This document shows, in pieces, positions 6,283 to 63,200 of a DNA stretch of 64,000 nucleotides (its first letter is position 1; each line of letters starts with the position of its first letter). The translations under genes and the position numbers were made by a program. The notes beneath the pieces were generated by a model. The model did not search any database, was not told the DNA's origin, and saw only the letters and a program-made list of their open reading frames with translations. The stretch comes from Acutalibacteraceae bacterium. Lineage in GTDB: Bacteria; Bacillota; Clostridia; Oscillospirales; Acutalibacteraceae. Where the stretch lies: NCBI GenBank assembly GCA_045642705.1, contig JAZUJK010000007.1, positions 31,736-95,735 on the forward strand. Direction: 5' to 3'.

Positions 6283-7576
6283 AAAAGAGAAATTAAATGC
6301 CGAGCTCTGGGACAAGATGCACTATATGTTCCGCGATTATAACGACCGCATGGTTCATGTCGTTTTAAACTACGACTATCAAATAAACATAGACGCACTA
6401 AAGAGCGTCATCATATGCTTTGTAGAAAAAATCCCTGTTCTTCATTCCAGTTTTCACTTCAGCGCAAATGATCCTTATTGGCAAGCTGAGGAATATACAA
6501 TTGAAGAACTCTTGACTGTAATAGACAATCCAAATGACTTAGATGCTGCAATAGAAGACTTCATTATGCAGTACCTCCCACCTGAGAACAACTTACAGAT
6601 AAAGTTTGCTGTTATTAACAAGGACGGCAAATCCACTCTGTGTCTAGTCGCAAACCACATGTGTATGGACGGTGGAGATCTAAAATCATTCCTTCATTCA
6701 TTCTGTGAAGGATATACCGAACTCGTCGAAAATGAAAAGAGCCCTGTTGATATCGTTCGCCAAGGCTCCCGTTCCTTTGAAGAGGTATATACAGATCTCA
6801 GTTCTACAGAAAAGCGTGCTGCCAAACGGCTATATAAGAATGTATCCAACAAGGACAAGCATGGGTTCCCATTCACAGCCGACAGCAAGAATGACAAATC
6901 ATTTATTGTAAAGCGCAAAATAGATGCCGATAAATTCGCAAAGCTCCGAGCAGCGGGCAAGTCCATCGGTGCGACAGTAAATGATACACTCGTCGGTGCT
7001 TTCCTCTATGCAATGTATGACATTGCAGAGTTCCCAACCGACGAAGAAGTCGTTGTTTCCTGCGCTATCGACTTGCGCCGCTATATGAGCAACCTCGATG
7101 AGGTTGGATATACCAACCATACCGCGTATATGCCATGTTCTACACCTGGCAAGGCACGCGATATAAAAGAGAGTGTTGAATTTGCCAAAATTTCCGCAAG
7201 AAAGAATAAGGATGATAGGTTTATGGGACTCTATGGCCTACCACTTTTGAAACTTGCCTATAATATTATGCCTTATCTCGCATCAGAGAATGTTATCAAG
7301 ATTGGGTATTCCAATCCTCTCCTATCTATGAGTAACATAGGTGTACTGGATACAGCAAAATTATCTCTATGTGGTAACCCTCCTGTTGATGGTTTTATGA
7401 CAGGTGCGGTTAAATATAAGCCATTTGCGCTTATGTCAGCAACATCAATGAATGGTGAAATGACACTCGTTATGTGTGAGCGTGGAAACGAAAAAGATAA
7501 AGAAATAATAGAAAAATTCTTTGACTTGCTCGAGAAAAATTTTGATGATTTCATAAAACTCACAGAAATCGAATAA
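6275..7576 (+). CDS. Stand-alone condensation-domain/acyltransferase superfamily protein (HxxxDG)
   Basis: ~433 aa with LVANHMCMDGGDLKSFL, an HxxxDG catalytic motif as found in NRPS C-domains, PapA5 and WS/DGAT acyltransferases. The ATG at 6275 is preceded by GGAGGTG and is translationally coupled to the upstream membrane protein. Confidence 0.55.
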   Translation: MAKKEKLNAELWDKMHYMFRDYNDRMVHVVLNYDYQINIDALKSVIICFVEKIPVLHSSFHFSANDPYWQAEEYTIEELLTVIDNPNDLDAAIEDFIMQYLPPENNLQIKFAVINKDGKSTLCLVANHMCMDGGDLKSFLHSFCEGYTELVENEKSPVDIVRQGSRSFEEVYTDLSSTEKRAAKRLYKNVSNKDKHGFPFTADSKNDKSFIVKRKIDADKFAKLRAAGKSIGATVNDTLVGAFLYAMYDIAEFPTDEEVVVSCAIDLRRYMSNLDEVGYTNHTAYMPCSTPGKARDIKESVEFAKISARKNKDDRFMGLYGLPLLKLAYNIMPYLASENVIKIGYSNPLLSMSNIGVLDTAKLSLCGNPPVDGFMTGAVKYKPFALMSATSMNGEMTLVMCERGNEKDKEIIEKFFDLLEKNFDDFIKLTEIE

Positions 7577-7584
7577 AAAAATTA

Positions 7585-7617
7585 AGCCCTTCGCAAACGC
7601 GAAGGGCTAAGTTTTTT
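7585..7617. terminator. Bidirectional intrinsic terminator
   Basis: The stem AGCCCTTCGC / GCGAAGGGCT (7585-7594 / 7599-7608) is flanked by an A-run upstream and a T-run downstream. It lies between convergent genes. Confidence 0.7.
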
Positions 7618-7618
7618 A

Positions 7619-8305
7619 TTAGAATGCAAAGCTAATTGCTGCAAGCATAAGGCCTAAGAAATATGTACCACTATTGAGGCGAAGAACTAATTTGCTCTCT
7701 GTAAATTTGAACTTGTGAAGAGAGATAAAATAGTCTGAAATCATATATAGGATAAGGCCTGAGCAGAAGAGCACTGTTTTAACTGAGAATGGTGCAAGTG
7801 CAAGAACTGCAATTGAGAGTGTACCATGAAGTGAAACGGTTCCGATATATGGTGGGAACATAAATTTCATCTCTGGCTTCTTCTCTTTCCAGATGTACCA
7901 GCCCTTGAACCAGAGAATGCAGAAAGTGCTAACGAGTGCTGCATAGATAAGTAGGAACCACCAATACTTACCAAAGCCTATTCCCTGTGCTGACATAAAT
8001 TTAAGCTGTGCTATGAAGAGAATAACATTACTGATACCGAATGAGAAACCGCCCTTGGAGAAACTCCATAGGAGCAATACATCACCGACAAATGCGAAAA
8101 ACAAACCGATTATAAAGCGGATATTCAGTGGATCTCCCCATAGTGAATGATTAAACATTTCAAATATCGCATATCCCATAAACATTGCTGCCATAAGGAT
8201 TTTATTGATTGCACGACGCTTGAAATTGCCAGATGTCTCAGAGAAGAAATATGAGACAAGGACAATGAGATAAAGTACAACGAAAATAATAGTATAAAGC
8301 TGCAT
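7619..8305 (-). CDS. YhhN family membrane protein (lysoplasmalogenase-like)
   Basis: 228 aa with ~8 TM spans. It carries the two half-motifs of the YhhN/TMEM86 family as I remember them: FAFVGDVLLLW in the first half and LYMISDYFISLHKF in the second. Confidence 0.55.
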   Translation of the reverse strand: MQLYTIIFVVLYLIVLVSYFFSETSGNFKRRAINKILMAAMFMGYAIFEMFNHSLWGDPLNIRFIIGLFFAFVGDVLLLWSFSKGGFSFGISNVILFIAQLKFMSAQGIGFGKYWWFLLIYAALVSTFCILWFKGWYIWKEKKPEMKFMFPPYIGTVSLHGTLSIAVLALAPFSVKTVLFCSGLILYMISDYFISLHKFKFTESKLVLRLNSGTYFLGLMLAAISFAF

Positions 8306-11317: not shown

Positions 11318-11346
11318 AAAAGGCTCCCATTTTGGGAGCCTTTTTT
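11318..11346. terminator. Bidirectional intrinsic terminator
   Basis: AAAAGGCTCCC-ATTTT-GGGAGCCTTTTTT lies between convergent genes. Confidence 0.7.
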
Positions 11347-12256
11347 ATATCTCTTCTATCGCTAGAAGTACTATTCCGATAAGTAGCAAGAAAATTGAAA
11401 TGTATTGAGCTCTTGCGAGTTTCTCTTTTAGGAATATTCTCGCGAGCATTACAGATATTATGCAATAAGCTGCAATAACTGGTGCTGCAACCTCTGCCCT
11501 GCCTGAGAGCGCATATACATAAGTAAATTGTCCTGCGGTCTCACAAATGGCGGCAAGAGGTCTGCTGCCACCGACACCTGGTGACAGTGGCTCTCTCTTA
11601 ATAAGCACAACATAGATAGCAAGCACAATTGCAACAATGAAGAATGTAAGTTCATATGAGATATTGGCCACATCTTCAAAATTTGCTTCGGTCACAGAGA
11701 GAAGCGGTGTTGTACTAATATCGTCGAGATAATAGCCGTCAAGGAATGTACCGAGCGAATCTATTACCGCATATATAATTGGCATAAAGAAAGCGACAAA
11801 GCCTATCTTATACTTCTTATCGCCATCCTCTGCCTCCTCACGTCTCTCAAATGCGCCGAGCACTATAACACCTAGTGTTACAAGCACTATTGCAACAAGT
11901 GACATCGCATCCGGCAAACGCCTTAGTACTATGCATAGGAGTATGCATGATATTGCGCCTGATGCATTCTGTATCGGGCTCGATATCGAGAGAGCAAGAT
12001 AGCGCAGACCGAAATATCCAACCGTCATAGATAGAATATACATAAGCGATACAGGCAGATAGACATATAAATTTCTAAAATCATAATCTATGCCCCGTAT
12101 AAGCATGGTCGCGATTGCAGTTATGCCCATGACAAATCCGACATATATAGTTGTCTTGATATGTGAAAAACGCTCCTCGCTATTGGCACCACGCTTGTAA
12201 AACAAGTCAGCTATGCCCCAGGCGCCGAGCGTTATCACTGTGTATATAAGCCACAT
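11345..12256 (-). CDS. EamA/DMT superfamily transporter
   Basis: 303 aa with 10 predicted TM spans arranged as two 5-TM halves, which is typical EamA composition. The RBS AGGGA lies 9 nt after the ynbB stop. Confidence 0.65.
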   Translation of the reverse strand: MWLIYTVITLGAWGIADLFYKRGANSEERFSHIKTTIYVGFVMGITAIATMLIRGIDYDFRNLYVYLPVSLMYILSMTVGYFGLRYLALSISSPIQNASGAISCILLCIVLRRLPDAMSLVAIVLVTLGVIVLGAFERREEAEDGDKKYKIGFVAFFMPIIYAVIDSLGTFLDGYYLDDISTTPLLSVTEANFEDVANISYELTFFIVAIVLAIYVVLIKREPLSPGVGGSRPLAAICETAGQFTYVYALSGRAEVAAPVIAAYCIISVMLARIFLKEKLARAQYISIFLLLIGIVLLAIEEI

Positions 12257-12265
12257 ATTATTTCC

Positions 12266-13549
12266 CTAAATTTCAATAAGTCCTGCATCAAGGAGTTTCT
12301 GCATTGACATCATTATGCCGAGCTTGGCATGTGGGAATGTAAGTCCTCCTTGGAAATATACAGCATAAGGTGGACGGATAGGTCCATCTGCTGAGAGTTC
12401 AATTGATGAGCCCTGTACGAAAGCGCCCGCTGCCATAATTACATCATCACTGTAACCAGGGATTGCCTCTGGTACTGGTGTGAAATAACTATCAACAGGA
12501 GCTGCTGCCTGAATTCCTTCACAGAATGCGCACATAGCCTCAGCTGAGCCGAGTTCTACTGACTGAATTATGTCGTGGCGAGGCTCCGTGCCATTTGGCA
12601 ATACGTGGAAGCCGAGCGTCTCATATGCACGCGCTGCAAAGATAGCGCCTTTCAGTGCGCCAGCTGTTACAGTCGGTGCGAGGAAAAGGCCTTGGTAGAG
12701 GCGTGTGTTGAGCTCGAGGCTCGCACCGACGTCCCCACCTATTCCAGGCGCTGTAAGGCGGTTCATGCAGCGCGCGATAAGTTCACGTCTGCCACAGATA
12801 TATCCGCCGATTGGAGCAAGTCCACCACCTGGATTCTTGATAAGAGAACCAACAACGAGATCAGCGCCGACATCAGATGGCTCAATTGTCTCAACAAATT
12901 CACCATAACAGTTATCTACCATCACAATGACATCAGGCTTAATCTGCTTGATAAACATTGTGAGTTCCCCTATCTCCTTAACGGAGAAGGTTGGGCGCAT
13001 TGCATAACCCTTGGAGCGCTGTATCTCAACGAGTTTGGTTTTCTCATTTATTGCGCGTCTGATATTGTCATAATCAAATGAGCCATCAGGAAGTAAATCA
13101 ACCTGTCTATATGACACACCATATTCCTTGAGCGAACCGATTCCATCACGGATACCGATTACTTCCTCCAATGTGTCATATGGCTTGCCAACTGGTGATA
13201 ACATCTCATCACCAGGTAGCAAATTAGCGGATAGAGCAATTGCAAGTGCATGCGTACCGCATGTTATCTGACCGCGCACAAGGGCTGCTTCCGTATGGAA
13301 GATGGAGGCATAAACTGCCTCGAGGGTATCACGACCCAAGTCGTCGTGACCATAGCCCGTTGTGCCCGCAAAACAGCCCGCGTTTACGCGATTGTCCTGC
13401 ATGGCCTTGATAACCTTCATTTGATTGTACTCTGCTACCGCATCGATATCGCGAAAACGCGCATCAAGTTCCCCTAGAATTTTCTCAGAGAAATCATATA
13501 CTTTGTCACCAATACCGAGTGCTCTATACATTTCATTCGAATTATTCAT
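12266..13549 (-). CDS. ynbB: YnbB / methionine gamma-lyase-family PLP protein (the so-called aluminium resistance protein family)
   Basis: 427 aa. The N-terminus ...VAEYNQMKVIKAMQDNRVNAGCFAGTTGYGHDDLGRDTLE... and the block SLIKNPGGGLAPIGGY (PLP lysine region) match the YnbB family as I remember it. Its start overlaps the livF stop (TAATG). Confidence 0.7.
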   Translation of the reverse strand: MNNSNEMYRALGIGDKVYDFSEKILGELDARFRDIDAVAEYNQMKVIKAMQDNRVNAGCFAGTTGYGHDDLGRDTLEAVYASIFHTEAALVRGQITCGTHALAIALSANLLPGDEMLSPVGKPYDTLEEVIGIRDGIGSLKEYGVSYRQVDLLPDGSFDYDNIRRAINEKTKLVEIQRSKGYAMRPTFSVKEIGELTMFIKQIKPDVIVMVDNCYGEFVETIEPSDVGADLVVGSLIKNPGGGLAPIGGYICGRRELIARCMNRLTAPGIGGDVGASLELNTRLYQGLFLAPTVTAGALKGAIFAARAYETLGFHVLPNGTEPRHDIIQSVELGSAEAMCAFCEGIQAAAPVDSYFTPVPEAIPGYSDDVIMAAGAFVQGSSIELSADGPIRPPYAVYFQGGLTFPHAKLGIMMSMQKLLDAGLIEI

Positions 13550-14268
13550 TAGTTCTTTTTCTTTCCAAGATAAGCTTCTTTTATAGTATCGTCCTCGAGA
13601 AGGTCAAGACCAGCACGATTAGTTGTGATATTACCTGTCTCAAGTACATATGCCCAGTCTGCTGTCTCGAGAGCCATAAATGCATTCTGCTCGATAAGAA
13701 GTACTGTGATACCTGCATCGTTGATTGTCTTGATAATCTTGAAAATATCAGCAACAACGAGTGGTGCAAGACCAAGAGAAGGCTCATCCATCATGATGAG
13801 CTCTGGCTTGCTCATAAGTGCACGGGCAACAGCGAGCATCTGCTGCTCACCACCTGAGAGTGTACCAGCAAGCTGCCACTCACGTTCCTTGAGTCGTGGG
13901 AATAATTCATATACGTACTCATAGTCAGCTGTGAGATCATCCTTGCGGAGATAAGCACCCATGCGAAGGTTTTCCTTTACTGTGAGGTTAGGAAAAACTC
14001 GACGTCCCTCCGGTACCAATACGACACCGGCACTTACTATCTTATCTGGTGACAAACCAATAAGTTCCTGGCCCTTGTACTTGATAGAGCCACTCTTTGG
14101 TTTTACAAGACCAGCGATAGTCTTAAGTGTTGTAGACTTTCCGGCACCGTTTGATCCGATAAGGGTTACGATCTGTCCATCATATACATCTAGGGAGATA
14201 CCTTTAACTGCTTCGATACCACCATAAGACACACAGAGGTCTTTTATTTCAAGTATCTTATCACTCAT
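13549..14268 (-). CDS. livF: Branched-chain/hydrophobic amino-acid ABC transporter ATP-binding protein (LivF type)
   Basis: Walker A GSNGAGKST, signature LSGGEQQML and Walker B LIMMDEPS. The size and C-terminus are typical of LivF. Confidence 0.85.
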   Translation of the reverse strand: MSDKILEIKDLCVSYGGIEAVKGISLDVYDGQIVTLIGSNGAGKSTTLKTIAGLVKPKSGSIKYKGQELIGLSPDKIVSAGVVLVPEGRRVFPNLTVKENLRMGAYLRKDDLTADYEYVYELFPRLKEREWQLAGTLSGGEQQMLAVARALMSKPELIMMDEPSLGLAPLVVADIFKIIKTINDAGITVLLIEQNAFMALETADWAYVLETGNITTNRAGLDLLEDDTIKEAYLGKKKN

Positions 14269-15106
14269 CGTCAGCTACCCCCAAATAAGCCTCAATAACA
14301 AGTGGATTCTTCTGAATCTCACTTGGAACACCATCGGCAATCATCTTACCAAAGTCGATAACATAAATATGATCTGAGATATCCATAACGAGGTTCATAT
14401 GGTGCTCAATTAGGAATATTGTCAAATTATACTTGTCACGAATCTCCTTGATAAATGCTGCGAGTTCCTCTGTCTCCTGTGGATTCATACCAGCCGCTGG
14501 CTCGTCGAGGAGGAGAAGCTTTGGCTCGGATGCGAGCGCACGTGCAATCTCCAAGCGACGCTGAATACCATAAGGAAGGCTTGTCGCAATATCGTCCTTG
14601 AACGCATCAAGGCCCTGCTCGCGTAGGAGTTCCATTGTCTCCTCACGCATACGCTTCTCCTCCTTGGCATTGCCACGGAAGGTTGCGCTAAATACGTTTT
14701 GATTTGCACGCATATGCTTAGCAGTCAAAACGTTATCAAATACAGTCATACTCTTCCAGAGTCTGATGTTCTGGAATGTACGGGATATACCCTTTTCTGT
14801 AATCTTATCCGGTGTCAATGCAACAACCTCACCGAGGTACTTGTCGCCATTCTCACCGAGATAGTTCTTCTTCATCTTGCCTGATGGATGGTTGCGAACG
14901 ATAGGCTCGCCCATGAATTCAACAAGACCATTTGTAGGCTCATATACGCCTGTGATGCAGTTGAAGGCTGTTGTCTTGCCGGCACCATTTGGTCCGATAA
15001 GAGCTACAATCTTGCCCTCTGGAATATCGAGGGACAAATTGTTAACGGCAACGACACCGCCGAACTGCATTGTAATATTTTCTACATGGAGGACATTATC
15101 ACTCAT
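14261..15106 (-). CDS. livG: Branched-chain amino-acid ABC transporter ATP-binding protein (LivG type)
   Basis: Walker A GPNGAGKTT, a LivG-specific insertion after Walker A, signature LPYGIQRRLEIARAL and LLLLDEPAAG. Confidence 0.85.
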   Translation of the reverse strand: MSDNVLHVENITMQFGGVVAVNNLSLDIPEGKIVALIGPNGAGKTTAFNCITGVYEPTNGLVEFMGEPIVRNHPSGKMKKNYLGENGDKYLGEVVALTPDKITEKGISRTFQNIRLWKSMTVFDNVLTAKHMRANQNVFSATFRGNAKEEKRMREETMELLREQGLDAFKDDIATSLPYGIQRRLEIARALASEPKLLLLDEPAAGMNPQETEELAAFIKEIRDKYNLTIFLIEHHMNLVMDISDHIYVIDFGKMIADGVPSEIQKNPLVIEAYLGVADDE

Positions 15107-16283
15107 TTGTCTCGCCCTCCTTAATCTCTTTTACTTTTTTCTTACGCCTAAACAGATCCGGCAACTCCTTGTCGCCCATGATACCCTGACGGAAGAAAAG
15201 AACAACAATCATAATGATGATTGAGAAAACTACCATACGGAAACCGTTCTTTAAAAGTGGAACCTGAACGCCACCAATATACATTGGGTTGTCGAGGAAA
15301 CGAAGTAACCACTCTGAGCATGCGATATAGAGGAATGATGCGATGCAGCTACCTGATACAGAACCGATACCACCAATTACAACGATGAGAAGAATCTCAT
15401 AGGTCATAGCAGATGTAAATATTTTAGCCTGAACAGTTGATGCGAACATAGCAAAGAGTGCTCCACCAACGCCTGCGAAGAATGAACTGATGCAGAATGA
15501 AAGCATCTTGTGCTTCGCAAGATTGATACCCATAGCCTCTGCTGCTACCTCATCATCGCGGATTGCCTTGAATGCACGACCGTATGATGAATTGATAAGT
15601 AAAACTATGATTGCGATACAGATACCAGCAATCAAGATTGGTATAAATGAAGAGAGTCTAAATACAACCATCCCGCTATCGTTTCTGATATTAAAATCAG
15701 AAAATGTTGGATATGAACGAAGTGCATTTGCACCATTTGTAACTTTTCCAAGTTTGCCCCATTGGAAAATCGCACGTAGGATTTCAGCAAAACCAAGGGT
15801 AGCAATAGCAAGATAGTCACTCTTGAGTCTCAGTACTGGAAGTCCGATGAGGAATGCGAAGATAGCAGCAACAAGACCTGCTGCGATACATGCAAGAAGT
15901 ACTGTTACAATGAGACCAAATGTCTCACCGAAAATGCCCTTCATCGCATCCGTCAAACTAAATCCAATAGATGAGCCATCAAAGAGATAATAAATCGAAT
16001 CACGAAGGTCACCAGGAATTGTAAGAATAGCGTATGTATAAGCACCGAGAAGCATGAATCCTGCCTGGCCAAGTGAGAAGAGGCCAGTGAAACCATTAAG
16101 TAGGTTCATTGAAACTGCAACAAGTGAATAAACAGCGCCTTTTCGTATTACCGTAAACAAAGGGGATGTAAAACTAATTGTGTTTTCAAGAACAACCGTC
16201 AAAATAATTACTGCAAGTATTACAGATAAAGTAACGAGAGTTCCCACATCGACACGTTTTTTTTCATTCATCATATAGTTCAC
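15099..16283 (-). CDS. livM: Branched-chain amino-acid ABC transporter permease (LivM type)
   Basis: 394-aa polytopic ORF with LNGFTGLFSLGQAGFMLLGAY, typical of LivM. It overlaps the neighbouring liv genes. Confidence 0.8.
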   Translation of the reverse strand: MNYMMNEKKRVDVGTLVTLSVILAVIILTVVLENTISFTSPLFTVIRKGAVYSLVAVSMNLLNGFTGLFSLGQAGFMLLGAYTYAILTIPGDLRDSIYYLFDGSSIGFSLTDAMKGIFGETFGLIVTVLLACIAAGLVAAIFAFLIGLPVLRLKSDYLAIATLGFAEILRAIFQWGKLGKVTNGANALRSYPTFSDFNIRNDSGMVVFRLSSFIPILIAGICIAIIVLLINSSYGRAFKAIRDDEVAAEAMGINLAKHKMLSFCISSFFAGVGGALFAMFASTVQAKIFTSAMTYEILLIVVIGGIGSVSGSCIASFLYIACSEWLLRFLDNPMYIGGVQVPLLKNGFRMVVFSIIIMIVVLFFRQGIMGDKELPDLFRRKKKVKEIKEGETNE

Positions 16284-16288
16284 CCTCC

Positions 16289-17164
16289 TTAAACCTTATC
16301 AGTTACCTTTTCGCCAAAGATACCAGTAGGCTTAACTACAAGGATGATGATAAGAAGTGCAAATGTGAAAGCATCTGAGAATATTGAATAATCGGTACCC
16401 TTAATAAGGGTCTCACAGATACCGATGATAAATGCACCAATTACTGCACCCGGAATAGATCCGATACCGCCAAATACGGCAGCGACGAATGCCTTAAGTC
16501 CTGGCATAGCACCTGACAAAGGGACAACTGTAGGATAGTTTGTGAAATAAAGAAGGCTACCAACTGCTGCAAGGAATGAGCCAATGATGAATGTTACAGA
16601 GATTACTGAGTTAATCTTAACACCCATGAGCTGTGATGTCTCAAAGTCCTTGGATACAGCACGCATAGCAATACCAACCTTGGTATGGTTGATAAGTGTT
16701 GTAAGGAGCGCTACAAGGAGAATAACAAGTATTGGTGTAATAACTGTTACTACGCTTGTTGGCGCGCCAAGAATATGAATTGTATTAGAAATCCATGGTA
16801 TTCTTGTATATGTCTTAGGCTGTCCACCTGTTGCATAGAGTGCAACATTCTGGAGAAGATAGCTGACACCAATTGCTGAAATCATAACAGACATTCTTGG
16901 TGCTGAGCGGAGCGGTCTATATGCTGCACGTTCAATAATGAATCCGAGAAGGACTGTTAAGATGATAGAAATCGGAATGCTGAGATAGATTGGCAGAACA
17001 GTAGACATGTAAACTACGAGAAGTCCGGCAACCATGAATACGTCACCATGGGCGAAGTTGATAAGACGAAGTATGCCATAAACCATCGTATAACCGATAG
17101 CAATCAGAGCATACTGTCCACCAAGTGACACGCCGGAAAGTATCTGAGAAATAATAAATTCCAT
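16289..17164 (-). CDS. livH: Branched-chain amino-acid ABC transporter permease (LivH type)
   Basis: 291 aa, beginning MEFIISQILSGVSLGGQYALIAIGYTMVYGILRLINFAHGD, the canonical LivH N-terminus. Confidence 0.8.
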   Translation of the reverse strand: MEFIISQILSGVSLGGQYALIAIGYTMVYGILRLINFAHGDVFMVAGLLVVYMSTVLPIYLSIPISIILTVLLGFIIERAAYRPLRSAPRMSVMISAIGVSYLLQNVALYATGGQPKTYTRIPWISNTIHILGAPTSVVTVITPILVILLVALLTTLINHTKVGIAMRAVSKDFETSQLMGVKINSVISVTFIIGSFLAAVGSLLYFTNYPTVVPLSGAMPGLKAFVAAVFGGIGSIPGAVIGAFIIGICETLIKGTDYSIFSDAFTFALLIIILVVKPTGIFGEKVTDKV

Positions 17165-17180
17165 AATTTACCTCTATCTG

Positions 17181-17211
17181 TGAAAATCAAGGGGAGCCGA
17201 GTGGGCTCCCC
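17181..17211 (-). terminator. Intercistronic hairpin / partial terminator between the binding-protein and permease genes
   Basis: GGGGAGCC-N5-GGCTCCCC (17211-17191 on the minus strand) is followed by UUGAUUUU. This arrangement is common after ABC binding-protein genes and produces an excess of SBP transcript. Confidence 0.45.
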
Positions 17212-17242
17212 TTGAACTGGTTTATAAGTTTTAACTTAAATC

Positions 17243-18415
17243 TTAGTTAGCTGTCTGCTGTGTCTCAAACACCCAAGAAACATTTGTATTGTCAGAAGTC
17301 TTGATAAATGCTGTATCACGCTTAGCATCACCAGTTTCATCAAATGCGATTGCACCAGATACACCAGTGTATGTAACCTTAGGAAGAGCAGCCTTGATAG
17401 CAGCTGGATCTGCAGAACCTGCAGCCTTGATAGCCTCAAGTGCTACGAAGTAAGCGTCATAACCCATTGCTGTTACAGCAGAGATTGTGTCGTTACCACC
17501 GTTTGTAGCCTTAGCTTCTGCATTGTTGTTGATATATTCCTTGATACCAGCATCGAACTCAGCGTTACCACCCTCAGCATAGAAAGTAGAAACATAGAGT
17601 TTGATATCAGTGTCTTTTACACCATCAAGTACAGTATTATCATCAAGTGTATCAGAACCAATAATTGGGAATTTTGCTTCAAGTTCTGCTGCTTTCTTAA
17701 CAATGTTCTGTGCATAATTGATTGAAACTGGGCAGAAGAAAACATCGCAGCCCTCTGCTTTAGCCTTGTTAATATAAGAACTAAAGTCTCCTGTATCCTT
17801 TATGAAATTATCGGATATTACTGTTCCACCAGCCTTTTCAAAAGCTGAAGTGAAAAATGTAATCAATCCCTGATCATATTCATTTCCAGACTCGCCAAGA
17901 CAATATGCTTTCTTTGCATTAAACTTATCTGCAGCAAAGTTTGCAAGAACTGTGCCCTGGAAAGGATCAAGGAAGCAAATACGGAAGTAGTGATCGTTAC
18001 CAGCTGTTACACCAGGATTAGTACATGTAACACCGAGAGCAGCTATACCAGCATCTTTAAAAATGCTTGATGCTGCCATTGAAACACTTGAGCCATATGA
18101 GCCAAGAACGATAGCAACATTCTTACCAACGAGCTCAGAAGCTGCTGTTGGAGCCTTAGCTACATCTGAAGCATTATCAGCATATACGAGTTCTACTTTG
18201 TATTCCTCGTTGCCGATAGTAACTGTAGGACACTTGGAGTTAGCATACTGCATACCAAGCATTTCCTTCTTTCCGCCTGCGCCTGAGTCGCCTGATGCTG
18301 GCTCAAATACGCCAATACGGATAACCTTTTCACCTGCGCCTGCTGGTGCTGCTGAACATCCAGCGAAGCAGAGAATCATTGCAAGTACCATTACAAGTGC
18401 AATTATTCTTTTCAT
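17243..18415 (-). CDS. Amino-acid ABC transporter substrate-binding lipoprotein (LivJ/K, Peripla_BP_6 type)
   Basis: Signal peptide with the lipobox CFAGC. The mature part reads IRIGVFEPASGD...VLGSYGSS..., the type I PBP pattern of Leu/Ile/Val-binding proteins. Confidence 0.8.
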   Translation of the reverse strand: MKRIIALVMVLAMILCFAGCSAAPAGAGEKVIRIGVFEPASGDSGAGGKKEMLGMQYANSKCPTVTIGNEEYKVELVYADNASDVAKAPTAASELVGKNVAIVLGSYGSSVSMAASSIFKDAGIAALGVTCTNPGVTAGNDHYFRICFLDPFQGTVLANFAADKFNAKKAYCLGESGNEYDQGLITFFTSAFEKAGGTVISDNFIKDTGDFSSYINKAKAEGCDVFFCPVSINYAQNIVKKAAELEAKFPIIGSDTLDDNTVLDGVKDTDIKLYVSTFYAEGGNAEFDAGIKEYINNNAEAKATNGGNDTISAVTAMGYDAYFVALEAIKAAGSADPAAIKAALPKVTYTGVSGAIAFDETGDAKRDTAFIKTSDNTNVSWVFETQQTAN

Positions 18416-18456
18416 AAATAACTCTCCTTTTATATATAAAATATAATACGCAAGAA

Positions 18457-18485
18457 ATTATAATAAAAAATTGCATTTTAGTCAA
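18457..18485 (-). promoter_or_regulatory. Promoter of the liv-ynbB-eamA operon
   Basis: TTGACT (18485-18480), 17 nt, TATAAT (18462-18457), ~40 nt upstream of the RBS AAGGAGAG. Confidence 0.6.
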
Positions 18486-18494
18486 CAATTTGGA

Positions 18495-18968
18495 TTAAAG
18501 TTGCTTTTCAAGGCAGTCCTTATATTGGAGCAGGAATGCCTTGATTTTATTCATTTCTACAATGTATTTATCTATGTCGCGTATGAGCCATGGGTCTGGT
18601 ACAGGGGCATATTTGCCGGTTGCTGCCTCTGAGAGTGTTTTGAATTTTTTATGCCACCAAACTGGCAAAAGCAACTTGTGTCCCTTGGTCATTCCGATGA
18701 TAATATCGGCTTCACGGAAGAGTTTCCAATCATAAGGTCTAAGTATAAAACCAGGTTTATGACTGTTTACATATTCCCTATCAAATCCCTCTCGGATAAG
18801 GGCTTCCGCTGTATTGGGATCTATTGCTGGAACCGGACTCATGACAGCTGATGACTTGACCTCAACCTTGCCACGTAGGATGTCCGACTCCTCCACCATA
18901 CGCCTAAACATGTACTCACAATATGGGCTTCTGCACATATTTTGCGAGCAGACAAATAATACTTTCAT
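18495..18968 (-). CDS. Low-molecular-weight phosphotyrosine-phosphatase-family protein
   Basis: P-loop VCSQNMCRSP (CX5R-S, with Q where G is usual) and a downstream VPDPW (DP acid loop). 157 aa. Confidence 0.7.
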   Translation of the reverse strand: MKVLFVCSQNMCRSPYCEYMFRRMVEESDILRGKVEVKSSAVMSPVPAIDPNTAEALIREGFDREYVNSHKPGFILRPYDWKLFREADIIIGMTKGHKLLLPVWWHKKFKTLSEAATGKYAPVPDPWLIRDIDKYIVEMNKIKAFLLQYKDCLEKQL

Positions 18969-18976
18969 AGTGCTCC

Positions 18977-20596
18977 TTAGCCATTAAGTGCTGCGAATGC
19001 AGCCTTGTTGTTCTTATAAAGTGTCTTGAATACTTCAAAGTTCTTGTCATAGATTGCCTTGTTATCTGGGTTAGGCTTGAAAGTCTTCTCAGCAGGGATG
19101 AAATCCTTAACCTTATCGAGGCTCTCAATTGCACCGATACCAACGCCGATGATTGCTGCAGCACCAACTGCGCCAACATTCTGAGGACTTGCAACTGTCT
19201 CAACTGTCTTGCCAAGTACATCTGCAAGAATCTGGCAAGTTACATCTGAGAGAGCGCCACCACCTACGAAGCGAACTGTATCTGATACATCAACCTTCTT
19301 AGCCTGCTGCTCATACATCCAGCGATTCTGGAAGCATACGCCCTCGATTACGGCACGGATAAGGTCACGTTTGCCTGTATCTATGCTGATATTGAAGAAC
19401 ATACCTGCAGCATTTGGATCCTCAAATGGGCAGCGGTTGCCATGGAGCCAAGGTGTGAAAATAACACCATTTGAGCCAGCTGGAGTCTCACGCATAACTT
19501 TGGATAGATAGTCATAGAGTGATGTATATGCAACCTCAAAAGTCTCAGGAGATTCTGTAACATCCTTCTTCTCGAGATAGATGCCAATCTCATCGAGTGC
19601 CAAATGATTCTTTACCCACTCAAGGCATTTTCCTGATGTCTCATGCTCTGCAAAGTAGTTGTATCTTCCCTCATCAGCACCTACAATTGCGGCGATCATT
19701 GCGCCTGTATCAACTGTCTGTTTTTCAACTACAGTTGATACCCATCCTGATGTGCCGGAATAGATATGTGTGTCACCTGGGAGAACTGCGCCGGCACCTA
19801 CACCGATGAGCGATGCATCGCCGCCACCACCAAATACAGGAGTGCCCTCAAGGAGACCGAGATCATCAGCTGCTGATTTGGTAAGTCCACCTACAACATC
19901 TGTTGATTTTACAATATCTGCGAGGTGTTCTGGGTTTACGTCAACGAGTTTGCAAACCGGCTTACACCAACCCTCATGACCCTTTCTTGTGTCATAGAGA
20001 AGCTGGCCGAAAGCTGAGTCTGGAGTCATTACGATTTTGCCTGTCATACGGGCAATAATCGACTCCTTAACATCGACAATTTTATAGATTTTCTTGAAGA
20101 CTTCTGGCTCGTGAGCCTCAATCCATTTATACTTCCAAATTGGGTCCTTAACAGAGCATGAAACTGCTCCTGTATAGTAGAGATATGGAAGGAGTTTAAA
20201 TACGTTAGCACCTGCAATTTGAATGCCGTTTGCGATGCCCTTCTTGATCTCTTCCTTAGCACGTTGATCCATATAAGACATAGGTCTGCGAAGTACGTTG
20301 CAGTCCTTATCAAGAGCTACAAGACCCTGCATCTGTGAGCAGAAAGAGATACCTTCTATCATCTCTTTTGTAACTCCGAGCGCCTTGACTTCATCGCTCT
20401 CAAAGATCTCTTTTGTGGTTGCTGACATAGCGTTCCACCACTCGTCAAAATCCTGCTCGGCGCCACCATTTTCCACCATGTAAAGTCCGTATCCCATGGA
20501 TGATGCAGCCTTGAGAACAATTGTCTTATCGATCTCGAAAAGGCATGTCTTTACGCCTGTTGTTCCGATATCATAAGCGATTACATACTTTCCCAT
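18977..20596 (-). CDS. FGGY-family carbohydrate kinase (xylulokinase/ribulokinase-like, substrate unknown)
   Basis: 539 aa with the N-terminal YVIAYDIGTTGVKTCLF phosphate-1 motif, GGGDASLIGVGAG, and C-terminal FVGGGALSDVTCQILADVLG. Confidence 0.8.
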   Translation of the reverse strand: MGKYVIAYDIGTTGVKTCLFEIDKTIVLKAASSMGYGLYMVENGGAEQDFDEWWNAMSATTKEIFESDEVKALGVTKEMIEGISFCSQMQGLVALDKDCNVLRRPMSYMDQRAKEEIKKGIANGIQIAGANVFKLLPYLYYTGAVSCSVKDPIWKYKWIEAHEPEVFKKIYKIVDVKESIIARMTGKIVMTPDSAFGQLLYDTRKGHEGWCKPVCKLVDVNPEHLADIVKSTDVVGGLTKSAADDLGLLEGTPVFGGGGDASLIGVGAGAVLPGDTHIYSGTSGWVSTVVEKQTVDTGAMIAAIVGADEGRYNYFAEHETSGKCLEWVKNHLALDEIGIYLEKKDVTESPETFEVAYTSLYDYLSKVMRETPAGSNGVIFTPWLHGNRCPFEDPNAAGMFFNISIDTGKRDLIRAVIEGVCFQNRWMYEQQAKKVDVSDTVRFVGGGALSDVTCQILADVLGKTVETVASPQNVGAVGAAAIIGVGIGAIESLDKVKDFIPAEKTFKPNPDNKAIYDKNFEVFKTLYKNNKAAFAALNG

Positions 20597-20615
20597 ATTT
20601 ATTCTCCTTTATATT

Positions 20616-21299
20616 TTATTTACCAAATTTTTTAACGTCATCGTGAGCGAATGTAAATGCGGCCTCAATGAATTTTAGCAGTTCACTTACCATTCTCTCA
20701 TTGTCATCGAAAATATCCTCACCGCAATAGATTTTTAGCCTCTCACGGTAATAATCACAAGTGTAAGAAAACTGAAGTGACATAAGGAGTGAGTCAAAGA
20801 AGAATGCGAACATAGCCGGGTCGCAGTCGTCTCTTATATCCCCTTTTTCTTTCGCTGCCGCGATGAAATCGCGGTATGTGCGCGCGGAGATATCCTCAAC
20901 GCGTTTCGCAAGGACAGCGGCGCCCTCGTTTTCAGACAACTTGGTAATTTCATTATATAATTTTACATACTTAGAGTCGGCGCCGGATGTCGCCTGGATA
21001 GCGCGTATCAATTTCTCCGCGCGCACCAGAATTTTGTCATCCGAGTTGACGACGCCATCAATTATCTCTTCGAGGGTTGTCATAGCCTCGTCAACGCAGG
21101 TGAGAAAATAGTCCTCTTTCGTATCGAAATACTTGTAGAGAAGTCCTACAGACACCCCTGCCTTTTTAGCGATAATATTGATATTTGCTTTCTCTAGACC
21201 GAGCTCTGAAAACTCATTGATACCAGCGGTTATAACCGCCGATTTATACTTGGGGTCAGCACGGTCAAAAGCCTCTTTATGATGCGGTTTTTCAGCCAT
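20616..21299 (-). CDS. TetR/AcrR-family transcriptional regulator
   Basis: N-terminal HTH (...NINIIAKKAGVSVGLLYKYFDTKEDYF). I prefer the start at MAEKPHH (21299), which follows GAGGAGG; the ORF track TTG start is at 21314. Confidence 0.85.
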   Translation of the reverse strand: MAEKPHHKEAFDRADPKYKSAVITAGINEFSELGLEKANINIIAKKAGVSVGLLYKYFDTKEDYFLTCVDEAMTTLEEIIDGVVNSDDKILVRAEKLIRAIQATSGADSKYVKLYNEITKLSENEGAAVLAKRVEDISARTYRDFIAAAKEKGDIRDDCDPAMFAFFFDSLLMSLQFSYTCDYYRERLKIYCGEDIFDDNERMVSELLKFIEAAFTFAHDDVKKFGK

Positions 21300-21323
21300 T
21301 GTATACCTCCTCAATACGGAGTT

Positions 21324-21339
21324 GTGAGTATTTGCTCAC
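21324..21339. promoter_or_regulatory. Candidate TetR operator 1 (inverted repeat)
   Basis: GTGAGT-ATTT-GCTCAC is a 6-4-6 inverted repeat with one mismatch. It lies in the 5' UTR of the tetR-kinase operon. Confidence 0.45.
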
Positions 21340-21410
21340 TATGGCTAAATTGTATCAATAAATTTGTTAAAATTCAATATAGATTTGTGCTTTTATTTTA
21401 CCATTAATAG

Positions 21411-21419
21411 TGGTATAAT
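21411..21419 (+). promoter_or_regulatory. Extended -10 promoter element for the aminotransferase-aldolase operon
   Basis: TGGTATAAT (TGnTATAAT), ~65 nt upstream of the ATG at 21484. The -35 region is weak. Confidence 0.45.
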
Positions 21420-21433
21420 TTTATTGTAAATAT

Positions 21434-21449
21434 GTGAGCAGCCGCTCAC
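21434..21449. promoter_or_regulatory. Candidate TetR operator 2 (perfect inverted repeat)
   Basis: GTGAGC-AGCC-GCTCAC is a perfect 6-4-6 palindrome with the same half-site as operator 1. It lies 15 nt downstream of the -10, a roadblock position. Confidence 0.5.
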
Positions 21450-21483
21450 GACACTATATTTTTTAAGTTTTGGAGGTATACAA

Positions 21484-22974
21484 ATGGACACAAGATTTGC
21501 TATTTCCGAGTACCCAGATGCGATAGCCATCAACAAGGAACTCGATGAACTTATCAAGAAGCCAATCTATTCTCTCAACAGAACTGCCCTCAAGAATTAT
21601 GAGGAAGAGTATTTTGAGAAGAAGTGCAAGAAGTCTAAAGAGATGATTACAGAGGCTCGCGACTATATACCAGGTGGCGTACAGCACAACCTCGCTTTCA
21701 ACCACCCATTCCCTATCGTTATGACTAAGGCCGAGGGCGCTTATCTCTACGATATCGATGGTAACCGTTACTATGACCTTCTCCAGGCAGGCGGTCCTAC
21801 AATTCTCGGTTCTAACGATCCAGTAGTTCGTGACGCTGTAATCGACCTTCTCAATACATGTGGTCCATCAACAGGTCTTTTCCATGAGTATGAGATGAAA
21901 CTCGCAAAGAAGATTTCTGAATGTGTTCCATCAGTTGAGATGTTCCGTATGCTCGGTTCAGGTACTGAGGCTTGCATGTGCGCAGAGCGTGTAGCACGTC
22001 TTGCAACAGGCCACAAGAACATCTTAAAGATGGGTGGCGCATACCACGGCTGGTCAGATATGATTGCATGGGATATGCGTATTCCAGGCACAATGAATCT
22101 CCAGTCTAAGGGTATTCCTATGTATGCATTCCGTCATACACAGGGCTTCTTCCCAGGCGACCTCGAGGATCTCGAGAAAAAGCTCAAGCTCAACGAACTC
22201 AACGGCGGTACAGCTGGCGTATTCATCGAGCCAATCGGCCCAGAGTCAGCAACTCGTCCTGTTACTCGTGAATTTGTTAAGGGTGTTGAAGCACTCTGTC
22301 ATAAATATGGTGCACTTCTCATCTGTGATGAAGTTGTATCTGGTTTCCGTATCGGTCTTGCTGGTGCTCAGGGTTACTATGGTATCGACCCAGACATCAC
22401 AATCTTCGGTAAAGTAATCGCTGGCGGTTACCCAGGTGCAGGCGGAATCGGCGGTCACAAGGATGTTATGAAACATCTCGGCGCTGGCCTTGACGCATCT
22501 GGCAAGAAGGTTAAGAAGGCAATGTGCGGTGGTACAATGGCAGCTACTCCAATCTCTTGCGTTGCTGGATATACAGCAATCTGCGAGATTGAGAAGCGCA
22601 ACGCTTGCCAGGTAGCAGGCCAGATGGGTGACCGCCTCACTAAGGGCATCCAGGCTTCTATCAAGAAGTACAACCTCCCATTCGTTGCATTCAACGTTGG
22701 TTCAGTTTGTCACCTTGATACAGTTGGTACAATGCAGTTCGCAATCGACCTCAAGAAGGCTTGGGAGATTCCAGGCATCCTTGATCAGACAGGTGTTCGT
22801 CAGGTTGAGATGCAGAACATGGGTGCTGCATACATGGCAGAAGGCCTCGTAACACTTGCAGGCTCACGTCTCTATACATCTGCTGCTTATACAGAGGAAA
22901 TGATCGACGATTGTATCGCTCGTTTCGACAAGGTTCTCTCACAGTGTGAACTTATCCCAACTAAGAAGAAATAA
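21484..22974 (+). CDS. Class III (fold type I) PLP enzyme, glutamate-1-semialdehyde-2,1-aminomutase-like, with a ~60-aa N-terminal extension
   Basis: 496 aa with GGVQHN...AEGAYLYDIDGNRYYDL, GSGTEACMCAERVAR, ICDEVVSGFRIG and the PLP-lysine block IFGKVIAGGYPGAGGIGG (compare HemL LGKIIGGGLP). Confidence 0.8.
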   Translation: MDTRFAISEYPDAIAINKELDELIKKPIYSLNRTALKNYEEEYFEKKCKKSKEMITEARDYIPGGVQHNLAFNHPFPIVMTKAEGAYLYDIDGNRYYDLLQAGGPTILGSNDPVVRDAVIDLLNTCGPSTGLFHEYEMKLAKKISECVPSVEMFRMLGSGTEACMCAERVARLATGHKNILKMGGAYHGWSDMIAWDMRIPGTMNLQSKGIPMYAFRHTQGFFPGDLEDLEKKLKLNELNGGTAGVFIEPIGPESATRPVTREFVKGVEALCHKYGALLICDEVVSGFRIGLAGAQGYYGIDPDITIFGKVIAGGYPGAGGIGGHKDVMKHLGAGLDASGKKVKKAMCGGTMAATPISCVAGYTAICEIEKRNACQVAGQMGDRLTKGIQASIKKYNLPFVAFNVGSVCHLDTVGTMQFAIDLKKAWEIPGILDQTGVRQVEMQNMGAAYMAEGLVTLAGSRLYTSAAYTEEMIDDCIARFDKVLSQCELIPTKKK

Positions 22975-22987
22975 TTGAGGTACAAAT

Positions 22988-24196
22988 ATGGCTTATGAAA
23001 TAAACGAAGCAAAGGCACTGGTTGTTGAGGCTGGTAAAAAGCTCGTTGAATCAGGTCTTATTGCTAGAACTTGGGGTAACGTATCTGCTCGTATCTCAGA
23101 TACTCAGTTCGTTATCACTCCATCAGGCCGTGCCTATGAGACACTTACACCTGATGAAATCGTTGTTGTAAATATTGCTGACTGTGAGTATGAAGGTGAT
23201 ATCAAGCCATCATCTGAAAAAGGTGTTCATGCTGACGCATATAAACTCCGTCCAGATGTTGATTTCATCATTCACACTCATCAGGTCAATGCATCAATAA
23301 TCTCTGCAGCTGGTATCCCAATCAAGGATATCCCTGCCAAGGATGCTAAGGTTCTCGGACCTATCGTTCCAGTTGGTGCTTATGGCATGCCATCAACAGG
23401 CGCTCTTCGCGAAGGCGTTGCGGCTGCTGTTGAAATAAACCCTGAGAGCAAGGCAGTAATCATGAAGCATCACGGCGCACTCTGCATGGGTGCCAGCCTT
23501 GATGAGGCCTTCAAGATTGCTGAGACACTTGAGGCTCTCTGTGCCAAGGAAGTTGGTCGCCTAACAGAATTTGCTTGTGGCAAGAAGTACAAGCCAGACA
23601 ATCTCTATAAGGCTTTCGCTACAGTCTTCCCAGGCAGCGGCGACGCACCTGTTGATCTCGGATCATCCAAGCGCATCAGTGATGAATTATTCGAGCTCTC
23701 TATGGAGAATGGCACACACTATGTCTGCACAATGCAAGGTGTTGGCAAGAATGGTATCGCTCCTCGTGTTGCCCTTATCCACGCTGCTATCTACAGAAAT
23801 TGCAAAGTTAAATTCATCGTTCCTTTCGCATCAGATGATGTTAAGGCACTCTCATATGGAGTAGATAAGCTTACACCTTATCTCGACGACTTCGCTCAGA
23901 TTGCTGGTCGCGATGTCAAGGTATGCAACTGGCTTAGAGCTTCATATCGTACAGATGCAGATGAAATTGGCAAGGCAGCCAAGGGTCGTAGCGCAATCGT
24001 TATCCGTGGCCAAGGAGCTCTATGCACAGGCAACTCAATGTTCGATATCGACGCTGTAAAGCTCGTACTTGAGAAGGAGTGCAAGACTGAGATGTATTCA
24101 CTCATCAAGTCTGGTGTAAAATCACTCTCTCCTATCGACTGCGCAATAATGAGAACAATTTATGTACTCAAATATTCAAAGCAGGCTAGCAAATAA
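22988..24196 (+). CDS. Tandem class II aldolase/adducin-fold protein (intact N-terminal domain plus degenerate C-terminal domain)
   Basis: In aa 1-~200 I read TWGNVSARI, PSSEKGVHADAY, metal ligands IIHTHQ and MKHHGALCMG. Residues ~230-402 repeat the fold (ALIHAAIY..., VIRGQGALCTGNS) but have VPFAS where HTH should be. Confidence 0.75.
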   Translation: MAYEINEAKALVVEAGKKLVESGLIARTWGNVSARISDTQFVITPSGRAYETLTPDEIVVVNIADCEYEGDIKPSSEKGVHADAYKLRPDVDFIIHTHQVNASIISAAGIPIKDIPAKDAKVLGPIVPVGAYGMPSTGALREGVAAAVEINPESKAVIMKHHGALCMGASLDEAFKIAETLEALCAKEVGRLTEFACGKKYKPDNLYKAFATVFPGSGDAPVDLGSSKRISDELFELSMENGTHYVCTMQGVGKNGIAPRVALIHAAIYRNCKVKFIVPFASDDVKALSYGVDKLTPYLDDFAQIAGRDVKVCNWLRASYRTDADEIGKAAKGRSAIVIRGQGALCTGNSMFDIDAVKLVLEKECKTEMYSLIKSGVKSLSPIDCAIMRTIYVLKYSKQASK

Positions 24197-24206
24197 TAAA
24201 TAATAA

Positions 24207-24245
24207 GAAAAGCCCTCAGTTTAAAAAACTGAGGGCTCTTTTTTA
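24207..24245. terminator. Bidirectional intrinsic terminator
   Basis: The stem AGCCCTCAGT / ACTGAGGGCT (24211-24220 / 24228-24237) is flanked by an A-run and a T-run. It lies between convergent operons. Confidence 0.75.
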
Positions 24246-59943: not shown

Positions 59944-59960
59944 AATTCTTTTCCTCCTTA

Positions 59961-60974: not shown

Positions 60975-60976
60975 GA

Positions 60977-61870: not shown

Positions 61871-61910
61871 GAATATATCCCCTTTCATTCAAAAAATATG
61901 AATAAAAATT

Positions 61911-63185: not shown

Positions 63186-63200
63186 TATCTGTTCCCTCCT

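Follow-up and report, generated by a model that had tools for sequence, protein, structure and literature searches.

Gene content and control region of the locus

The window analysed here, the whole 64,000-nucleotide (nt) stretch of contig JAZUJK010000007.1 from an Acutalibacteraceae bacterium, carries at positions 18495-24196 a divergent locus of five genes, in which a pyridoxal 5'-phosphate (PLP) enzyme and a tandem class II aldolase face a TetR-family repressor, a carbohydrate kinase and a phosphatase. On the plus strand, a putative class III PLP transaminase of 496 amino acids (aa), similar to glutamate-1-semialdehyde aminomutase (GSAM) and D-phenylglycine aminotransferase (D-PhgAT), is encoded at 21484-22974 (Aminotran_3, 160 bits). 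It is followed after 13 nt by the 402-aa aldolase at 22988-24196 (Aldolase_II, 175 bits in two stretches), and a strong bidirectional intrinsic terminator at 24208-24240 closes this unit. The minus strand codes for the TetR-family repressor (20616-21299; TetR_N, 38.6 bits), a XylB-like FGGY carbohydrate kinase of 539 aa (18977-20596; FGGY_N and FGGY_C) and a 157-aa phosphatase with the low-molecular-weight protein tyrosine phosphatase (LMW-PTP) fold (18495-18968; Pfam LMWPc, 58.6 bits), with gaps of 19 nt between tetR and the kinase gene and 8 nt between the kinase and phosphatase genes. The map of open reading frames (ORFs) agrees to the base with the genes, strands, lengths and gaps of a first-pass annotation made from the sequence alone, and Pfam confirmed the families of all five proteins. 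The tetR gene probably starts at the ATG at 21299, which lies 7 nt after a GGAGG and looks likelier than the TTG at 21314 where the mechanically called ORF begins.

The 185-nt intergenic region contains two palindromes with identical half-sites, both predicted to be operators. Operator 1 (GTGAGTATTTGCTCAC, 21324-21339) lies between the -10 of tetR and its ribosome-binding site, and operator 2 (GTGAGCAGCCGCTCAC, 21434-21449) begins 15 nt after the -10 of the PLP-aldolase operon. A consensus scan placed a promoter-like site for the tetR-kinase-phosphatase unit on the minus strand at 21349-21377 (TTGAAT-17-TACAAT, with a TG). The same scan missed the extended -10 of the PLP-aldolase unit (TGGTATAAT, 21411-21419, plus strand), which was read directly from the sequence, because its -35 is weak. 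In 115 of 166 loci, the 260 nt preceding the PLP gene contain a motif of the form GTGAR-N6-YTCAC (0.02 expected for the same DNA), suggesting that TetR is the dedicated regulator of these genes. The repressor has the N-terminal helix-turn-helix domain (TetR_N), and the conserved palindrome lies in the divergent promoter region. This layout is similar to those of TetR-tetA, QacR and Bacillus FadR, which share the divergent repressor gene and the two palindromic operators overlapping both transcription units. It differs from them in that an FCD-type GntR regulator takes the place of TetR in some Paenibacillus.

Conservation of the core genes and their recurrent partners

The first-pass annotation had proposed that the locus is a functional unit, and comparison with other genomes bears this out. 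A scan of species-representative genomes with the PLP protein gave 299 relatives, and in the best 80 loci, which were inspected, the TetR, kinase, PLP and aldolase genes were all present wherever the contig reaches. In two further scans, the relatives of the PLP protein numbered at least 499 and 585, respectively. A tblastn search of all the fetched loci detected the PLP gene in 168, the aldolase in 156, the FGGY kinase in 145 and TetR in 141. An LMW-PTP was detected in 13. The four-gene core of TetR, FGGY kinase, PLP enzyme and tandem aldolase occurs together in about 246 loci of several hundred Bacillota species, in more than one gene order and with a shared operator. In distant Bacillota the order is rearranged to TetR-PLP-aldolase-kinase-transporter, PLP-aldolase-transporter-kinase (the transporter in both belonging to the major facilitator superfamily, MFS), GtrA-PLP-aldolase-kinase-TetR, or kinase-TetR divergent from PLP-aldolase, and the PLP and aldolase genes are always adjacent. 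Such an arrangement lies well outside what chance would produce.

Of 401 genomes sampled evenly across the phylum, 7 had an orthologue of the PLP enzyme at 57-100% identity, and the next-best proteins reached 39%, the level of hemL. This gap indicates that the family is sharply bounded and patchily distributed. Cultured carriers include Paenibacillus species, Anaerocolumna, Anaerotignum propionicum, Sedimentibacter acidaminivorans, Evansella tamaricis and Gorillibacterium, and uncultured carriers include abundant gut Oscillospirales with genomes of 1.5-2 Mb. A sister branch in Acutalibacteraceae and their relatives (loci L174-L200) has a PLP enzyme about 56% identical, a gene for a 190-aa TetR that overlaps the start of the PLP gene (-3 or -7 nt), and often no adjacent aldolase or kinase gene; a sodium:alanine symporter gene follows the PLP gene in L176 and lies within 6 kb in L191. 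Modules 78-81% identical to that of the window were also seen in metagenome-assembled genomes (MAGs) labelled Bacteroidaceae, Muribaculaceae, Paludibacteraceae or Bacteroides (L017, L018, L020, L021, L022, L068, L073). Mis-binned contigs are a more likely source of these copies than cross-phylum transfer.

In the 246 loci of the module, partner genes were counted up to a distance of 6 kb from the PLP gene. The commonest was an MFS_1 transporter (37 loci), followed by a class-3 aldehyde dehydrogenase (ALDH; 12), a GPH-type MFS_2 carrier (12), a GtrA-like protein (3), the phosphatase Y_phosphatase3 (3), YdcZ (2) and glutamate dehydrogenase (GDH; 2), and most gut loci had no transporter. The annotated partner gene clusters of these loci include no aldose-ketose isomerase, in agreement with the earlier remark that none is associated with the block. 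The ALDH gene follows the kinase or the aldolase gene in at least three arrangements, and its product scores 494 bits against a bacterial class-3 enzyme and 428-454 bits against human ALDH3A1/3A2. The GDH gene lies between the kinase and MFS genes (L106 and L132).

The MFS_1 transporter belongs to the FLVCR family, with 130 bits (E 1e-36) to human FLVCR1/2 and 35 bits to the next family. FLVCR1 and FLVCR2 (SLC49) are choline/ethanolamine uniporters; in FLVCR1, a cage of W125, F348 and Y349 surrounds the amine, and the hydroxyl is bound by Q214 and Q471. The ligands are cations, and betaine, which carries a carboxylate, is not transported (PMC11168923). All 37 bacterial proteins have the same residues at the positions of W125, Q214, F348 and Q471 and differ from the human ones in having Asn for Y349, again in 37 of 37.

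Two unrelated Cys-phosphatases have been recruited to the module. The LMW-PTP of the window (PF01451) has an intact P-loop of the CX5R(S) type, CSQNMCRS (C7-R13-S14), and an intact acid loop with the DP motif, VPDPW. A phosphatase in the operon was part of the first-pass annotation, and it is indeed present here, but it does not belong to the core: LMW-PTP genes occur in only 13 loci, all from Acutalibacteraceae-like lineages and always directly after the kinase gene, and are a lineage-specific accessory of the module. Y_phosphatase3 was found in two Paenibacillus loci, between the regulator and PLP genes, and in one gut Clostridia locus; the three are L139 (at 7497-8252 of that locus), L170 and L023.

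The PLP enzyme, the tandem aldolase and the kinase

The PLP protein carries only generic names in the sources. It has the features of a class III aminotransferase (PF00202, 160 bits), and its PLP lysine, K310 in FGKVIAGGYP, is invariant in 61 sequences. The top family matches are GSA aminomutase models, although the score for TIGR00713 is 259 bits and the cut-off 527.3. The fold resembles those of GSAM and D-PhgAT, with template modelling (TM) scores of 0.84-0.88 normalised to the target. The AlphaFold 2 (AF2) model is of moderate confidence, with a predicted local distance difference test (pLDDT) score of 81.5, and the loop 186-209 in the lid region is predicted with pLDDT <50. In Synechococcus GSAM, Ser29 and Arg32 bind the substrate carboxylate, Glu406 excludes keto acids, and a lid traps the diamino intermediate. 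Our alignment comprised 14 diverse members of the family, two genuine HemL proteins of the same phylum and the solved GSAMs. Where GSAM has the motif GGVNSPVRAF, the family has the invariant IPGGVQHNLAFN(H/Y)PFP, so that Ser29 and Arg32 are absent. APSQFE, which contains Glu406, is replaced by AGSRLYT, with Tyr at the Glu406 position and a conserved Arg two residues before, and the lid motif KAGSG (of KAGSG...GxP) is missing in a 7-residue gap. The loss of these substrate residues, of Glu406 and of the lid makes an aminomutase role unlikely, and the PLP enzyme is likely a transaminase with an external keto-acid partner. Consistent with this, D-PhgAT aligns with it over the full length, its relatives interconvert carbonyls and amines, and a GDH gene accompanies it in two loci. 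An aminomutase had been left as an option in the first-pass annotation; the missing lid, the change of Glu406 to Tyr and the GDH gene in two of the operons make a transaminase look truer.

That the protein is the genome's own HemL, or some other aminomutase, with its clustering incidental, has almost no probability in our view. Its best family and structure matches are indeed GSAM, and it shares with HemL the fold and the context of the PLP lysine (FGKVIAGGYP vs. GKIIGGGLP). Nevertheless, it scores only half of the hemL cut-off, it lacks the substrate-binding Ser and Arg, Glu406 and the lid motif, and its gene shows tight linkage with that of the aldolase in 156 loci. It is also longer than HemL by about 45 N-terminal residues and a C-terminal insert, and no tetrapyrrole genes lie nearby. 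The PLP enzymes of the module are a distinct orthologous group of GSAM-like class III enzymes without the GSAM substrate residues, sharply apart from the hemL-level proteins, so the identification with hemL that would have undone the first-pass interpretation does not apply. No hemL above the TIGR00713 cut-off was found in the whole 1.52-Mb, 97%-complete genome, and the organism may depend on imported corrinoids or tetrapyrrole precursors. GntE, PigE, the aminoglycoside C-6' aminotransferases and D-PhgAT belong to the same class III subgroup and interconvert carbonyls and amines with an external amino partner. However, the module enzyme reaches no family cut-off (GntE, 212.6 vs. 525), and the substrates of those enzymes are specialised metabolites rather than nutrients.

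The aldolase consists of a catalytic FucA-like class II domain (aa 1-195; 22988-23572, plus strand) and a metal-less pseudo-aldolase domain (aa about 225-402; 23660-24196, plus strand). The N-domain superposes on E. coli FucA, the best structural match, with a root-mean-square deviation (rmsd) of 1.6 Å over 190 columns. It keeps, invariant or nearly so, the FucA residues GNVS (N31), T44-P-S-G47, S75-S76-E77, H96-T-H98 and H162, and so has the three His zinc ligands, the Glu base and the phosphate-binding N, (S/T)G and SS of the FucA-type enzymes (PF00596). The C-domain has neither the HxH motif nor the other His ligands, and none of the FucA catalytic residues. It conserves instead a loop, L299-D300-D301-F302-A-Q304-I-x-G307, in which D300, D301, Q304 and G307 are invariant in 57 diverse sequences, and also D353, K363, Y392 and Y396. 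This loop aligns with the FucA segment carrying Tyr113, which we take to reach into the active site from the neighbouring subunit; in the catalytic domain itself, the corresponding segment is poorly conserved. In other lineages the two halves are swapped within one protein (L090) or encoded by two adjacent genes, the pseudo-subunit first and the catalytic subunit second, and the LDDM/LEDM-SQI-G loop is always in the pseudo half. The alignment to FucA suggests that the loop contacts the catalytic site of the partner domain. The catalytic and pseudo subunits may be obligate partners, the acidic loop shaping the pocket on the aldehyde side. The AF2 model of the whole protein has a pLDDT of 94.4 and a predicted TM score (pTM) of 0.92. 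No tandem structure was present among the 50 best PDB fold matches, the L-fuculose-phosphate aldolase equivalog TIGR01086 gave 80 bits against a cut-off of 400, and no other class II aldolase was found in the genome.

The kinase has both FGGY domains (FGGY_N and FGGY_C, 135.9 and 95.4 bits), and the genome codes for one other FGGY protein. Its best NCBIfam match is XylB (TIGR01312, 256.7 bits, under the cut-off of 380.25), followed by FGGY gluconokinase (216), LsrK (155), FucK (72) and RhaB (30 bits). Two other kinase types, at about 33% identity, serve the same PLP-aldolase pair elsewhere and are XylB-like at 303-327 bits. Thus, three mutually distant kinase types are all XylB-like (257-327 bits) and not FucK/RhaB-like. 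The LsrK match raised the question of autoinducer-2 (AI-2) processing, which was dropped, as LsrF and LsrG are absent and the transaminase would have no role. A logic similar to methionine salvage, with a kinase, an MtnB-like enzyme, a phosphatase and a transaminase, was also dropped, as there is no isomerase or dioxygenase.

Candidate substrates and direction of the route

We favour, as plausible though somewhat short of probable, the reading that the locus is a TetR-repressed module for the assimilation of a small hydroxylated primary amine, with ethanolamine as the best candidate, in which the aldolase captures an aldehyde. An inducer would free TetR from the two GTGAG-N6-CTCAC operators. 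The transaminase would then pass the amino group to 2-oxoglutarate and form a hydroxy-aldehyde (glycolaldehyde from ethanolamine), which the adjacent aldolase would at once join to dihydroxyacetone phosphate (DHAP), giving a pentulose 1-phosphate. In this step, the LDDFxQIxG loop of the pseudo-domain would play the part that the neighbouring subunit has in FucA and complete the active site. A phosphatase, here the co-transcribed LMW-PTP and elsewhere another enzyme, would strip the 1-phosphate. The XylB-like kinase would rephosphorylate the product at C5 to a pentulose 5-phosphate that enters the pentose-phosphate pool, and the nitrogen would leave as glutamate.

Several observations point to this order of steps. 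It is suggested by the XylB-likeness of the three kinase types together with the two unrelated recruited Cys-phosphatases, and by the invariable adjacency of the PLP and aldolase genes, which would fit the removal of a toxic aldehyde. An ethanolamine-type transporter is among the partners, the assimilation of a C2 compound without oxidation needs the formation of a C-C bond, and both the Glu base and the DHAP-phosphate pocket of FucA are preserved in the aldolase. A small amino alcohol as the substrate is favoured by the FLVCR-family transporter in 37 loci with its conserved ligand residues, and by the fact that the other partners are small-solute carriers (GtrA-like, YdcZ, GPH) and most gut loci have no transporter.

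Other observations weigh against this proposal. The FLVCR-type residues appear to mark likeness to a human transporter rather than a measured specificity, and no FLVCR-type gene was found in the window's genome, so that this clue derives from related genomes. The class-3 ALDH, present in 12 loci and at least three arrangements, is easier to reconcile with the release of an aldehyde by the aldolase than with its consumption. Most loci lack the phosphatase that the scheme requires, and alkyl phosphates are poor substrates for LMW-PTPs. To our knowledge, an ethanolamine:2-oxoglutarate transaminase is not an established enzyme. EutB (PF06751) occurs in 0 of 7 module genomes and in 32 of 401 background genomes, a difference that is not significant, and an anti-correlation of EutB with the module was therefore dropped.

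The more specific claim, that ethanolamine or a close analogue is widely assimilated in gut and soil Firmicutes through glycolaldehyde capture by a FucA-like aldolase of a heteromeric type, independently of vitamin B12, microcompartments and O2, is possible but doubtful. The proposed nutrient would be the same as that of the Eut system, whose ammonia-lyase EutBC depends on B12, whereas the chemistry of the module would need no B12 and no microcompartment and would yield no acetaldehyde. The large subunit EutB gave no match in the window's genome and was absent from the six other sampled module genomes. The catabolism of L-fucose, D-arabinose and L-rhamnose shares with the module an FGGY kinase and a FucA-fold zinc aldolase with its DHAP-phosphate pocket and Glu base. 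In contrast to those routes, the module has a class III transaminase in place of an isomerase, a kinase that is XylB-like and not FucK/RhaB-like, and an aldolase built from a catalytic and a pseudo-domain rather than as a homotetramer, and its direction is probably condensation rather than cleavage.

The first-pass annotation envisaged the opposite direction, in which an amino sugar is converted to a keto sugar, phosphorylated and cleaved. This order stands as a serious rival, but the FLVCR-type partner and the XylB-like kinases fit a small amino alcohol and the joining direction at least as well. In its most explicit form, the FGGY kinase would add a phosphate to C1 of a 2-amino-1,3,4-polyol, such as an amino-alditol, and transamination would give a ketose 1-phosphate. 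The FucA-like aldolase would split this into DHAP and an aldehyde, which would be oxidised or reduced elsewhere. We consider such a route unlikely, although an FGGY kinase with a FucA-like aldolase is the classical cleavage pair and the ALDH, after the kinase or the aldolase gene, is explained better than by aldehyde capture. Some GSAM-like transaminases use ketose or DHAP phosphates as substrates, examples being Cj1437 of C. jejuni and GabT1, which takes part in deoxynojirimycin synthesis in Bacillus, and the family-invariant polar residues Q67, H68, N69, N73, R462 and Y464 near the transaminase site could bind a phosphate. However, all kinase types resemble C5 (XylB) and not C1 kinases (FucK, 72 bits; RhaB, 30 bits), the phosphatases would have no role although two kinds have been recruited, and the FLVCR-type pocket suggests a very small ligand. 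We also know of no abundant natural small 2-amino-1,3,4-triol.

A special case of cleavage is the breakdown of long-chain bases, in which 2-amino-1,3,4-triols of the phytosphingosine type would, after phosphorylation and transamination, yield DHAP and a fatty aldehyde to be oxidised by the class-3 ALDH. The ALDH partner does score 428-494 bits against ALDH3A1/ALDH3A2-type enzymes, and the D-erythro C3/C4 configuration of phytosphingosine matches the stereochemistry of FucA. Many loci have no transporter, the effectors of TetR proteins are often lipophilic, and the hosts are plant-fed gut and soil bacteria. We nevertheless regard this as very improbable: small polar substrates are the only ones known for FGGY kinases and FucA-type aldolases, the invariant residues near the transaminase site are polar, and the commonest transporter partner has a small polar site of the choline/ethanolamine type. 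Sphinganine, without a 4-OH, could not be cleaved by such chemistry, and sphinganine and arylserinols were rejected as substrates on the ground that retro-aldol cleavage needs the 4-OH.

The recruited phosphatases would also suit a biosynthetic route, in which the aldolase builds a ketose 1-phosphate out of DHAP and an aldehyde, the transaminase aminates it, the phosphatase frees an aminopolyol or iminosugar precursor and a carrier exports it. Bacillus GabT1/Yktc1 in deoxynojirimycin synthesis is a precedent, and the Pfam family of the YdcZ partner (PF04657) is described as a putative exporter. There would be no role for the kinase, which is present in 145 loci, the ALDH and GDH partners fit catabolism, and an oxidoreductase that could close a ring is missing. 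The module is also kept in genomes of 1.5-2 Mb and in hundreds of species under a simple repressor. Biosynthesis is, therefore, hardly probable.

The neighbouring genes bear on one further alternative. A LIV-type ABC operon at 11345-18485 of the window adjoins the module. We reject the importer as part of the core, as the operon has its own promoter at 18485-18457, downstream of the phosphatase gene (TTGACT-17-TATAAT, near consensus at 11 of 12 positions), and the nearest solved structures of its binding protein are binders of branched-chain amino acids. A hairpin follows the binding-protein gene at 17187-17215. The LIV ABC operon was seen only in near relatives and in L089, and such a system adjoins the module in two lineages. 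This recurrence could speak for a hydroxy-amino-acid substrate such as 4-hydroxythreonine, which would be phosphorylated by an FGGY kinase similar to gluconokinase, transaminated to 2-oxo-3-hydroxy-4-phosphobutanoate and converted to DHAP and CO2 in an OtnC-like step. The second-best matches of the kinases are FGGY gluconokinases (216-279 bits), matches to OtnC-type decarboxylases reach 70-86 bits, and the GntR regulator that replaces TetR in Paenibacillus is of the FCD type. The promoter and the binding protein of the LIV operon count against this route as well, the ALDH and the phosphatases would go unexplained, and the exclusion of betaine from the cationic ligands of FLVCR (PMC11168923) does not favour an amino acid. 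It is the least credible of the metabolic routes weighed here, with a very low probability.

A second HemL-like enzyme, which had been noted beside a transketolase at 59-64 kb, was found in another conserved and unannotated five-gene operon (59146-63965, minus strand). The order is a 254-aa protein without a family match, a GSAM/GntE-like class III transaminase (61911-63185), the N and C parts of a split transketolase (TktN, 60977-61888; TktC, 59961-61007) and a 265-aa protein, also without a family match. In the 80 best related loci, both upstream genes were present in 80, TktN in 74, TktC in 71 and the 265-aa gene in 69, and the carriers include Eubacterium coprostanoligenes ATCC 51222. The adjoining ROK (glucokinase-like) and MurB genes are not co-conserved. 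This operon repeats the pattern of a transaminase beside a C-C bond enzyme.

The TetR-controlled module is made up of known enzyme families, but we know of no precedent for their combination, for an aldolase with a pseudo-subunit or for the probable substrate. In the full-text literature we found no description of this enzyme combination, of a ketose-1-phosphate/amino-alcohol or serinol phosphate route, or of a B12-independent ethanolamine transaminase route, in line with the earlier statement that no described pathway has this enzyme set. None of the findings that the first-pass annotation had named as refuting its interpretation was obtained. The proteins of the module carry generic annotations only, and an assignment would name four protein families and explain a new class II aldolase architecture made of a catalytic subunit and a pseudo-subunit. 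Should the ethanolamine reading hold, the transaminase would be a new one that acts on ethanolamine, class II aldolases would gain a new physiological function as synthetic enzymes, and bacteria would have FLVCR-type carriers for ethanolamine. The use of ethanolamine is a known factor in gut ecology, and the module could reveal a new way in which gut bacteria use a host- and diet-derived amine.

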